A stretch of DNA of 1,545 bases, from assembly GCF_054482525.1 (NCBI RefSeq), contig NZ_JBTHVG010000001.1; one strand, 5' to 3'. This stretch comes from a plasmid. Below the pieces are notes generated by a model. The model worked only from the letters and a program-made list of their open reading frames with translations, was not told the origin of the DNA and searched no databases. Below are positions 1 through 1,545 of this stretch, one piece after another (positions within the stretch are counted from its first letter, which is position 1; each line of letters opens with the position of its first letter). The translations under genes were made by a program, and so were the position numbers.

Positions 1-49
1 ATGTGCAAATGTAATACCGTCACCCGCGACGATATTCCGTTTGCCATCT

Positions 50-74
50 GGTCAGGGCTTCGCCCCGACACCCC
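50..74. repeat. Left copy of a perfect 25-bp inverted repeat (ggtcagggcttcgccccgacacccc)
   Basis: Exact reverse complement of 1366..1390, verified base by base; the match stops on both sides. Confidence 0.9.
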
Positions 75-110
75 GCATCAGTGCGTACGTGCTCAATGTG
101 GTTTCCCGTT

Positions 111-172
111 CTCTTCCGCTTCCTCGCCCACTCGCTCACTAACGTTCGGTCGCTGGGGCTGCGGCGAGCGGT
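111..172 (+). other. ColE1-type primosome assembly site (pas/ssi)-like segment
   Basis: Exact 17-mer ctcttccgcttcctcgc (111..127) and exact 16-mer ggctgcggcgagcggt (157..172), separated by 29 nt of related sequence. This matches my recollection of the pMB1/pUC region just downstream of the ColE1 origin, where the spacing is 27 nt. A short ccgcatcag string sits just upstream (73..81), as in pBR322. Confidence 0.6.
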
Positions 173-476
173 GCCACCTCTCGCATGTTGTCGGTGATTC
201 CGCTGTTGTTCTTCTGGGGATGAGTCGTCAGACAGCCCTTCAAACGCGCTCAGAAGCTCTCAGACGCACGAAACGGGATTTAAATGCCCGTCAGGGCATG
301 GAAGGCGCGAAAAACGCTTACAGAGCGTTTCAGGAGGTCAGGCGCGCCGATACCCCTAGCCAGGGGCTTTCAGGTCGCCAGGAACCGCGTCAGCCCCCTG
401 CAAAGCCCATTTGCACGGTACAGGCAGCCACTCGGTTGGTAGGTGGTCGTAGACCGTCGGTGTTACAGCGATGGGG

Positions 477-526
477 GTCTGGGGTTCTCCCCAGACGGTT
501 TCCGGTTGCGCTCAAGGCGCTGCCGG
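477..526. other. Two adjacent strong stem-loops in a GC-rich, probably non-coding region (candidate structured RNA or origin secondary structure)
   Basis: Stem-loop A: gtctgggg (477..484), loop ttct, ccccagac (489..496), 8 perfect base pairs. Stem-loop B: ccggttgcgc (502..511), loop tcaag, gcgctgccgg (517..526), 10-bp stem with one mismatch and one G-T wobble. Further hairpins at 286..297 (gcccgtcagggc) and 312..330 (aaacgct / agcgttt). Confidence 0.45.
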
Positions 527-666
527 AACCGTGGCGGCTCGGTCGTTCTGGAGATCGGGGAGCAAAAACACGCAAGGGATTTTGAGGCGGCAAAAGAGCA
601 ATGCAGGATAGACAATCATGGTCAGAACGTTAACACGTAACCCCTGATTGTCCGCCTGCCGCTGGC

Positions 667-1146
667 TCAATTTGAAAACATGGCCATGATTCGGCGCTGA
701 ATATCACCGTCTTTGTTGACCAGTGTTTTAGTGACAAACGCCGCGTAGTTTTTAGATGTGTTGTATCCCTTCCAGACTTCATGTGGATCGAGTGCATACG
801 CACAAACCTTACCGGCAACAGGAATTCTGACTAACGCGTTTTTTGATTCTAAGTAGTTGAGCCAGCGCTTAATTGTGCTTCGGCTAACACCCAATTTATC
901 TGCTAAAAACTGCTGATCGGCAACAACAGCACCGCATGAGGGATCTATGTGCTCAGCTAAAAACGAGTAAAGCGGTATTGCTACAACTCCCTGCTTGTCC
1001 TTCGACAGTTCTCGGATCCTTTCCCAGCCCTTCTGATAAACCTGGGTGAATGGGCCGTTATTTTTCGGATCTGGTTCCGATTCTTTGTTTAATTTTTCCA
1101 GTTCTTTTAGACGCTTTTTTCGCTGCTCTTCAGTCCCGATATACAT
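667..1146 (-). CDS. Putative winged-helix DNA-binding protein, 159 aa; candidate plasmid replication initiator and/or autoregulator (Rep-like). Family not verified.
   Basis: Complete ORF on the minus strand: ATG at 1146..1144, stop TGA (tca on + strand) at 667..669, in-frame stop upstream at 1174..1176. GGAG Shine-Dalgarno (ctcc at 1154..1157 on + strand) 7 nt upstream of the ATG. The protein has a charged helical N-terminus (EEQRKKRLKELEKLNKESE) and a typical helix-turn-helix with following wing (ADQQFLADKLGVSRSTIKRWLNYLESKNALVRIP). The Rep function is inferred from context (upstream repeats, AT-rich tract, flanking pas-like and oriT-like DNA), not from recognised sequence homology. Confidence 0.8.
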   Translation of the reverse strand: MYIGTEEQRKKRLKELEKLNKESEPDPKNNGPFTQVYQKGWERIRELSKDKQGVVAIPLYSFLAEHIDPSCGAVVADQQFLADKLGVSRSTIKRWLNYLESKNALVRIPVAGKVCAYALDPHEVWKGYNTSKNYAAFVTKTLVNKDGDIQRRIMAMFSN

Positions 1147-1205
1147 GGTAAATCTCCACGGTCTAATGATGGCTCAAATATAAGCCATCATAGCTCAAAC
1201 GTAAA
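1147..1205 (-). promoter_or_regulatory. Candidate sigma70 promoter and RBS for the 667..1146 gene
   Basis: On the minus strand: -35 TTTACG (+ coords 1200..1205), 17-bp spacer, -10 TATATT (+ coords 1177..1182), then GGAG RBS (1154..1157) 7 nt before the ATG. The -35 is a 4/6 match to consensus; spacing is ideal. Prediction by eye only. Confidence 0.4.
1166..1191. promoter_or_regulatory. Perfect palindrome (9-bp arms atgatggct / agccatcat, 8-bp spacer) overlapping the candidate -10; putative operator
   Basis: Arms at 1166..1174 and 1183..1191 are exact reverse complements; the spacer caaatata (1175..1182) contains the candidate -10 of the minus-strand gene. This arrangement is typical of autoregulated plasmid rep or regulator genes. 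The palindrome is seen directly; operator function is inferred. Confidence 0.5.
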
Positions 1206-1222
1206 CCATGATAGGTCGACCT

Positions 1223-1272
1223 AGCTCACACATGCGTGAGCTAACCTTAGACCATGCATGCGTGAGCTAACC
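1223..1272. repeat. Iteron-like repeat cluster: two identical 16-bp direct repeats (catgcgtgagctaacc) 26 bp apart, the first embedded in a 7-bp-arm palindrome
   Basis: Exact copies at 1231..1246 and 1257..1272. Palindrome agctcac / gtgagct at 1223..1229 and 1236..1242. The core agct(c/a)a recurs at 1192, 1223, 1239, 1265 and 1284. Located just upstream of the candidate -35 of the HTH gene and next to an AT-rich tract (1276..1330). Confidence 0.75.
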
Positions 1273-1335
1273 CATAATGCAAGTAGCTAAAAAATCAATA
1301 ACTTACAAAATCGCCCTTAAATATCTTTTCTGCTG

Positions 1336-1365
1336 AAAGTGTTGCGCAAAGCGGAACACTTTTTT
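1336..1365 (+). terminator. GC-containing hairpin followed by a T-run; intrinsic-terminator-like on the + strand, or alternatively an oriT-proximal inverted repeat
   Basis: Stem aaagtgttgcgc (1336..1347) pairs with gcggaacacttt (1351..1362) with one mismatch, loop aaa, followed by further T residues to 1365. No convincing + strand transcript feeds into it, so function is ambiguous. Confidence 0.3.
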
Positions 1366-1390
1366 GGGGTGTCGGGGCGAAGCCCTGACC
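1366..1390. repeat. Right copy of the perfect 25-bp inverted repeat; coincides with the 5' part of the bom/oriT-like sequence
   Basis: ggggtgtcggggcgaagccctgacc is the exact reverse complement of 50..74. Confidence 0.9.
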
Positions 1391-1428
1391 CAGTCACAGA
1401 GCGATAGCGATGTGTATACTGGCTTAAT
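1366..1428 (+). other. ColE1/pMB1-type bom (oriT)-like sequence including the conserved nick-region motif gtgtatactggcttaa
   Basis: Recalled from the pBR322/ColE1 bom region: shared strings gggtgtcggggcg, tgacccagtcac, agcgatagcg and gtgtatactggcttaa occur in the same order and spacing, with scattered substitutions. By analogy the nick would lie in ctgg/ctta at about 1422/1423. Homology is from memory, not a computed alignment. Confidence 0.65.
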
Positions 1429-1545
1429 CATCTGCAAGCCTTGTCAGCCGTGATTTTTGCCAGATTTCGCGCTCTCCACGTTCAACAGCTCCATCATGGT
1501 TTTGCCGTCCGTTCACCGTTAAAACGCCTCAGAAATCGGGACAGG

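Follow-up and report, generated by a model that had tools for sequence, protein, structure and literature searches.

The open reading frame at 667-1146 of the window, by which we mean the whole 1,545-nucleotide stretch of plasmid DNA analysed here, very probably codes for RepA, the initiator of the plasmid's own replication. This RepL-like single-winged-helix protein, orthologous to the RepA of pKL1, would be the sole protein product of the plasmid. A first-pass annotation made from the letters alone had named this protein the best candidate for the initiator and had likened the layout to RepA-dependent cryptic plasmids of about 1.5 kb in Enterobacteriaceae. The former proposal is supported by the orthology to pKL1 RepA and by an origin layout found across the family, and the resemblance was borne out by a whole-length collinearity with pKL1.

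The 1545 bp represent an entire circular plasmid and are the same at every base as RefSeq NZ_CP182202.1 (plasmid unnamed4), which belongs to E. coli EC130, a strain taken from a faecal swab of a pig in China. About two dozen plasmids of 1560-1566 bp from E. coli and Klebsiella align with it end to end at 96-98% identity. pKL1 (NC_002145, 1549 bp) aligns with window 38-1545 in a single block at 82% identity; the backbones of the two plasmids are 90-98% identical, and plasmid size and gene order are equal. PMC3526173 describes repA as the only gene of pKL1. The PLSDB type of pKL1, and of plasmids 92-98% identical to the window, is Col(MG828), a replicon type that the window would thus take by proxy. 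These comparisons support the identification of the 667-1146 product as the RepA of an already known family of cryptic E. coli plasmids of about 1.5 kb (pKL1 / Col(MG828)). Of 5426 complete E. coli genomes, 331 (~6%) contain the rep/ori module of this family, with nearly all copies plasmid-borne, and 32 of those 331 contain the subtype of the window. A record of 1197 bp whose RepA is the same was considered as a natural deletion derivative; being linear, and hence incomplete, it was rejected as such.

The 159 aa reading frame was confirmed from ATG to stop and lies on the minus strand, which the first-pass annotation had not specified. Its product is a basic protein of 18.2 kDa (pI 9.4). In a full-length BLASTP alignment with pKL1 RepA, 124 of its 159 residues are identical (78%), with one 1-residue gap and E=4e-94. 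The identity is distributed unevenly. Residues 59-159, comprising the winged helix and the C-terminal part, are about 95% identical, with a dN/dS of 0.043 at a dS of 0.71, and the first 58 residues have diverged strongly (dN 0.44, dS saturated); the overall dN/dS is 0.13. A GGAG Shine-Dalgarno motif read from the sequence (1154-1157, minus strand) stands 7 nt ahead of the start codon at 1146-1144. The low dN/dS against pKL1 repA, the GGAG ribosome-binding site and 697 homologues establish repA as a real gene under strong purifying selection.

Pfam HTH_36 matched RepA residues 59-102 (E=4e-6), beside many weaker HTH families, and RepL (PF05732) matched residues 59-134 below threshold (E=0.014, 15.4 bits). 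An AlphaFold2 model built from 62 diverse relatives reached a mean pLDDT of 87, with residues 31-140 mostly above 88. The model contains one winged helix at residues 51-119, consisting of a helix (51-65), a strand (73-77), a second helix (78-85), the recognition helix (89-101) and two wing strands (105-111 and 114-119). This domain is flanked by a charged N-terminal helix (6-23) and C-terminal helices (129-158). Structure prediction, proposed earlier as a check, therefore yields a confident winged helix, which is central and not C-terminal as the first-pass annotation had it. A Foldseek search of the PDB with the model returned MarR/ArsR-type matches at a TM of ~0.36, with nothing beyond 'winged helix', and a PDB sequence search with the family profile gave generic HTH matches only (E>=0.008) and no solved relative. 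NCBIfam matches were weak HTH-only regulator matches, scoring 12-17 bits against cut-offs of 60-420. No profile assigns RepA to a non-replication family, the outcome that had been named as counting against an initiator; the GntR, MarR and HutC matches span only the ~30-residue HTH.

The 697 homologues of RepA lie nearly all on contigs of 0.5-7 kb and form 345 clusters at 50% identity. Among 62 diverse members, HTH_36 was matched in 41 and RepL (E<=1e-3) in 29, the best at 4.5e-10, and relatives 45-51% identical to the RepA of the window carry a RepL annotation. These family-level matches and annotations suggest that the pKL1 RepA group forms the proteobacterial wing of small, single-winged-helix RepL-like initiators. 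The single-winged-helix class is treated in a recent preprint as one of two superclades of winged-helix initiators (bioRxiv 10.1101/2024.09.03.610885). An hhalign comparison of the RepA family with the 'RepL' of plasmid L005 was weak (probability 15%) and covered the recognition helix, the wing and a Y-x-[LI]-[DN]-P motif. The most conserved motif of the family, AYALxPxEVW, is located just after the wing, and Y117 within it is nearly invariant.

The region 5' of the repA start codon contains the operator-like palindrome, the iteron-like repeats and the AT-rich tract that the first-pass annotation had placed before the gene. Its further statement, of a gene co-directional with the origin-like region and just upstream of it, is wrong, since repA is on the minus strand and is transcribed away from the repeats. 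A sigma-70 consensus scan found a sole minus-strand match in the plasmid, the putative repA promoter at 1177-1205, with a -35 element TTTACG (1205-1200), a 17 nt spacer and a -10 element TATATT (1182-1177). A TGAGCTA half-site lies within the spacer. The promoter is enclosed by two 21 bp direct repeats on the minus strand (1166-1186 and 1187-1207), each with TTTGAGCYA, which we propose as the RepA operator, and a perfect 9 bp inverted repeat (1166-1174 / 1183-1191; hairpin z-score -3.8) brackets the -10 box. The promoter sequence ATGATGGCTTA.ATTTGA.CCA is kept in pKL1, within surroundings that are only 42-68% identical.

Two 24 bp palindromes follow, both built on the half-site GTTAGCTCA with arms of 8-11 bp, and both are candidate RepA sites. 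The proximal palindrome, CTAGCTCACACATG/CGTGAGCTAA at 1221-1244, is composed of 14-mers at 1221-1234 (plus strand) and 1231-1244 (minus strand). The distal palindrome is imperfect, is located 26 bp from the proximal one at 1247-1270, and contains 14-mer copies at 1247-1260 (plus strand, 3 mismatches) and 1257-1270 (minus strand, exact). The 14-mer TTAGCTCACGCATG occurs in 4 copies at <=3 mismatches against 0.12 expected. TGAGCTA occurs in 4 copies within 79 bp against 0.09 expected, a number reached in 0 of 200 shuffles. The repeats at 1166-1272, where 21-nt and 25-nt direct-repeat families accompany a 24 bp palindrome, are real and far beyond chance.

The only exact match to the IHF consensus AATCAATAACTTA in the plasmid (WATCAANNNNTTR; 0.07 expected, with at least one in 14 of 200 shuffles) is located at 1293-1305 on the plus strand, and the aligned sequence of pKL1 reads AACAACCACTTAC. 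An A+T-rich tract at 1271-1335 is a candidate DNA-unwinding region, and the G+C content of the plasmid is at its minimum, 37%, over 1251-1350. A stem-loop, AAAGTGTTGCGC-AAA-GCGGAACACTTT followed by a T run (1336-1365, plus strand), marks the edge of the rep/ori module; its DNA fold has an energy of -10.9 kcal/mol and a z-score of -4.3. DnaA boxes were matched 4 times at <=2 mismatches against 3.5 expected, none better than chance. PMC3832669 places the oriV of pKL1 upstream of rep and lists in it an IHF box, an inverted repeat of 16 bp and several sites bound by Rep. The IHF box, inverted repeat and putative Rep sites at 1166-1305 appear to match this layout.

The comparison with pKL1 reveals an architecture that is shared and a sequence that is not. 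Both plasmids have a hairpin, an A+T-rich tract with an IHF-like site, two adjacent palindromes, promoter-proximal half-sites and a ribosome-binding site; the pKL1 hairpin has a different sequence at the place matching 1336-1365. The origin DNA, in contrast, is only 42-54% identical, and the palindromes differ completely: that of pKL1 (GTTGTCGCATCC) is built on GTTGTCGCA with 12 bp arms, as against GTTAGCTCA and its shorter arms in the window. Judged from these sequences, the two origins probably represent separate specificity or incompatibility types. The same architecture extends to nine family plasmids from Escherichia, Klebsiella, Yersinia, Serratia and Paracoccus, in which two adjacent palindromes lie ~70-150 nt upstream of rep and further half-site copies lie closer to the start codon. 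A palindrome analogous to that at 1221-1244 occupies the same place in pKL1 and in 7 other family plasmids.

The half-sites vary among these plasmids around a common skeleton, GTTnnnnCA, with a variable 4 nt centre. The centre is AGCT in the window, GTCG in pKL1 and pKPHS6, GTTG in Yersinia pB-8086-5, GAGA in Serratia pXQ, ATGA in JML285_P8 and TCAG in pAES1. Across 8 family plasmids, GTTnnnnCA reaches 16.2/kb in the 170 nt upstream of rep versus 1.7/kb elsewhere (~10x), a descriptive figure, as the pattern was derived from these same sequences. The half-site centres of the window and pKL1 differ at 3 of 4 positions and their recognition helices at one residue (K93 vs I); pKPHS6 and pKL1 share the half-site and have different recognition helices. 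In the comparison of these three plasmids, no simple rule ties residues of the recognition helix or the N-terminus to the centre of the half-site. Three relatives of 1.3-1.4 kb (pKPHS6, JML285_P8 and Yersinia pB-8086-5) have only rep in common with the window and lack the backbone, apart from a 24 nt match to window 284-307 in two of the relatives of this size. All three retain two palindromes and promoter-proximal half-sites upstream of rep, which argues that rep and its upstream region constitute the replicon and that the remainder of the plasmid is dispensable.

We propose the following mechanism. repA would be transcribed leftwards, starting from the promoter at 1205-1177, and its translation would start at the ATG at 1146. 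RepA, which in pKL1 is reported by citing papers to be essential for replication, active in trans and hexameric, would bind the GTTAGCTCA-type half-sites in the two palindromes (1221-1270) through its winged helix. IHF would bend the DNA at 1293-1305, the adjoining A+T-rich tract would open, and helicase loading would allow host replication proteins to begin synthesis, presumably in the theta rather than the rolling-circle mode. The half-site recurs inside the promoter region (1166-1207), so excess RepA would shut off its own transcription and set the copy number without antisense RNA, as in the general picture of RepA autoregulation. Such control accords with what is stated of pKL1. PMC12361487, summarising Burian 1999, attributes the pKL1 copy number to Rep autoregulation and presents the plasmid as an example of 'Rep-only' control, in which surplus Rep binds origin elements non-productively; 'Rep-only' plasmids are described there as having neither iterons nor antisense RNA.

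The proposed mechanism resembles that of the iteron initiators (pPS10 RepA, F RepE and R6K Pi; Rep_3), in which a winged helix binds repeats beside an A+T-rich region with the help of IHF and the initiator represses its own promoter by way of a copy of its binding site, inverted or repeated. The iteron initiators, however, possess WH1 and WH2 domains and belong to Rep_3 (PF01051), whereas the model of RepA has one winged helix and the protein was not matched by Rep_3 even at E<=10. Their origins contain at least three direct iterons; the window has two palindromes and two 21 bp promoter repeats, and no DnaA box was found in it.

An unlikely alternative is that RepA acts as a rolling-circle or hybrid initiator, nicking one strand at or near hairpin-extruded palindromes, a mode proposed for RepL/pSN2 and pHW126-like plasmids, instead of melting the A+T-rich region for theta replication. 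The affinity to RepL, seen in 29 of the 62 family members, speaks for it. RepL initiators of the staphylococcal pSN2 family are, like RepA, proteins of ~18 kDa with a single HTH, come from the smallest plasmids that their hosts carry and belong to plasmids classed as rolling-circle (PMC5703833), and both RepL and RepA fall among the single-winged-helix initiators (bioRxiv 10.1101/2024.09.03.610885). The hosts of RepL are Firmicutes, unlike that of the present plasmid, and pSN2 plasmids have a double-strand origin and ssoA (PMC5703833), whereas no such elements, and no nick site or single-strand origin, were recognisable in the window. RepA also lacks an H-x-H throughout its length, and thus the HUH motif, and Rep_1, Rep_2 and Rep_trans are absent from its Pfam matches. 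The pHW126-like Reps (pIGMS31 RepM and pIGRK RepR) also speak for this alternative, having demonstrated relaxase activity though they lack HUH motifs; pIGMS31 shows both theta and rolling-circle intermediates. These Reps, likened to RepA here by their description, come from small enterobacterial plasmids, have a central winged helix, autoregulate and are said to be distantly related to RepL, but are ~200 aa long and are accompanied by four 20 bp iteron-like repeats and a conserved region. In single-stranded form the palindromes of the window have strong folds (z-scores -5.5 and -4.3), and across the family it is their structure and not their sequence that is kept; the nearly invariant Y117 just after the wing may be read in the same sense. 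On the other side, the IHF box and Rep-binding sites of the pKL1 oriV (PMC3832669) and Rep autoregulation (PMC12361487) are theta-type features. We tentatively retain theta-type initiation by RepA as the preferred reading.

A second alternative, and a very unlikely one, is that RepA is only a regulator or copy-number repressor, with replication driven by a ColE1-like RNA primer or by the product of ORF 1-585. RefSeq labels the ORF at 1-585 (plus strand) 'rep protein' and that at 667-1146 'helix-turn-helix domain-containing protein'; 'Col' opens the name of the replicon type, some of the backbone comes from ColE1-type plasmids, and the best NCBIfam and PDB sequence matches of RepA are regulators (HutC, DeoR and AsnC). 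ORF 1-585, which on the circle runs from 1441 to 585 (229 aa), is not a gene in either form. Its substitutions against 7 relatives are spread over codon positions 1, 2 and 3 as 75, 106 and 87, with no codon-position bias. Indels of 1-2 nt interrupt it in pKL1 and in the relatives L009, L013 and L005, and in-frame stops in L009, L010, L013 and L005. No Pfam or NCBIfam family was matched even at E=10, the database 'homologues' have 117-283 aa with ragged coverage, the hypothetical product has a pI of 11.4 and 14% Arg, and the frame overlaps the IncI1-type transfer origin. We rejected it as a second gene on these grounds, so the earlier judgement that 667-1146 is the only credible gene holds against RefSeq. 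A primer of ColE1 type fares no better: an Rfam scan of the window at E<=1 gave one chance-level match (proV, E=0.83) and neither RNAI nor another RNA family, and the ColE1-like pieces correspond to a transfer origin and its adjoining segment, not to the primer region. With the regulator matches confined to the HTH at scores far under their cut-offs, and with 1.3 kb family plasmids that lack the whole backbone retaining rep and the upstream repeats, a purely regulatory role for RepA is close to refuted.

Outside repA and the origin, the plasmid is non-coding and carries two borrowed transfer origins, one of IncI1 type and one of ColE1 type. Window 1-75 is 88-92% identical to intergenic DNA directly upstream of nikA in ~1400 IncI-type conjugative plasmids, and the IncI1-type match runs over the record junction into 1533-1545. 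The ColE1-type transfer origin at 1363-1431 matches small ColE1-like plasmids at ~93%, where it lies beside rop and mbe/mobC genes. The two transfer origins have a stretch of 25-34 nt in common, in inverted orientation. A GC-rich, non-coding segment at 83-635 is common to small plasmids with unrelated or distant Reps, and window 111-171 also adjoins the transfer origin in the ColE1-like pVR50D. The GC-rich segment may resemble the stretch of pBR322 just downstream of ori that serves as a PriA primosome assembly site.

The plasmid is a mosaic. Against L002, a plasmid of the pKL1 type, the window is 98-100% identical over 1-700; through repA the identity declines smoothly from 92% to 68%, reaches 42-54% over the RepA N-terminus and the origin (1050-1350) and recovers from 1351, at the transfer origin. 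Compared with the 1565 bp type, the window shows the reverse: rep/ori is identical, but a 21 nt indel sets the two apart and changes cluster at 601-660, where the window agrees with the pKL1 type. These reversed patterns of divergence indicate that the window is a recombinant of the pKL1 type and the 1565 bp type. The same backbone in L010 and L013 carries Reps only ~51% identical. A possible explanation, which we advance tentatively, is that the rep/ori module is under diversifying selection to escape incompatibility, on a near-invariant non-coding backbone that carries the transfer origins. That the N-terminal 58 residues and the origin have diverged together may have a functional basis or may reflect mere physical linkage.

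The present analysis adds little new biology on the initiator itself, as pKL1 RepA was reportedly characterised by Burian et al. in 1997, 1999 and 2003 and the exact plasmid sequence was already in RefSeq. The RefSeq annotation is nevertheless misleading and worth correcting for a family present in ~6% of E. coli genomes, because the real initiator is under-named and a non-coding ORF is called 'rep protein'. With a single gene and two borrowed transfer origins, the plasmid represents an extreme form of mobilisable element. If diversifying selection does act on the rep/ori module, the family would be a natural series of orthogonal initiator/origin pairs, and the specificity code would lie beyond the recognition helix alone. 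The half-site differences within the family could supply compatible miniature replicons for vectors, if the differences in specificity are confirmed.

The open reading frame at 1–585 on the plus strand is labelled 'rep protein' (WP_224706374.1) in the RefSeq record NZ_CP182202.1, and this name has been propagated to many database records. The real initiator, RepA, is labelled there only as 'helix-turn-helix domain-containing protein'. The frame at 1–585 was rejected as a coding gene, since comparison with its relatives gave 75, 106, and 87 substitutions at the three codon positions, the relatives contain frameshifts and in-frame stops, and the frame matched no protein family. A GC-rich (approximately 60%) non-coding segment at 83–635 is 92% to 100% identical between plasmid subtypes, an identity above that of repA synonymous sites. 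The same segment occurs in small plasmids with unrelated or distant Reps (L005, L010, and L013). Positions 111–171 are found again in a ColE1-like plasmid, beside its transfer origin, and may resemble the primosome assembly site of pBR322.

Two transfer origins were located. The ColE1-type origin (bom/nic region) at 1363–1431 on the plus strand shares approximately 93% identity with small ColE1-like plasmids, in which its counterpart adjoins rop and the mbe/mobC genes. It is because of this origin that the plasmid is typed as 'mobilizable' without a relaxase gene. The IncI1/R64-type origin, on the minus strand, comprises 1533–1545 joined to 1–76 and is 88% to 92% identical to the DNA directly upstream of nikA in approximately 1,400 IncI-type conjugative plasmids. 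The similarity spans the start point of the record (...cgggacagg/atgtgcaa..., with the slash at the start point). A 34-nt inverted repeat (50–83 and 1357–1390; 88% complementary), with a perfect 25-nt core (GGTCAGGGCTTCGCCCCGACACCCC), represents the portion common to the IncI1-type and ColE1-type origins, which point in opposite directions. This repeat is a likely recombination point through which a ColE1-type backbone acquired the IncI1 origin.

The best conserved motif across the whole RepA family is not the recognition helix but AYALxPxEVW, which directly follows the wing (residues 113–128, window 763–810). Within the family, Y117 is at least 90% conserved and W125 is invariant. A similar pattern, Y-x-[LI]-[DN]-P-x-x-V-[WF], was noted in the 'RepL' of L005, a seemingly unrelated protein.

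RepA-like proteins have also been deposited under other host names, namely Corynebacterium evansiae, Acinetobacter baumannii, Pseudomonas aeruginosa, and a Bacteroidales metagenome-assembled genome (P0018, P0025, P0035, and P0052). Identity was 97% to 98% for three of them and 78% for the Bacteroidales one, and every one lies on a contig of approximately 0.6 to 1.8 kb. They appear to reflect a high-copy E. coli plasmid that was carried over, and not true hosts. Four further matches (H61, H62, H68, and H69) are partial copies of the C-terminal half of RepA, covering residues 45–158 or 98–158 at 75% to 82% identity within 73- to 328-kb E. coli and Vibrio plasmids; these are probably relics of miniplasmid cointegration.

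At the outer edge of the origin, a stem-loop precedes a run of T (1336–1365). In pKL1 (L003), a hairpin of different sequence occupies the matching position, 199 to 227 nt upstream of repA; structure, rather than sequence, thus seems to be conserved here. The element may act as a terminator that insulates the origin, or else as a signal for priming. Judged by sequence comparison, the window is a mosaic, in which the rep/ori module derives from the 1,565-bp subtype (L001) and 601–660 from the pKL1 type; the latter stretch lacks a 21-nt insertion relative to L001 and matches the pKL1 type. Over 700–1350, identity to a pKL1-type plasmid (L002) drops smoothly from 100% to approximately 42% towards the origin, the kind of graded loss that diversifying selection would be expected to leave around its target.
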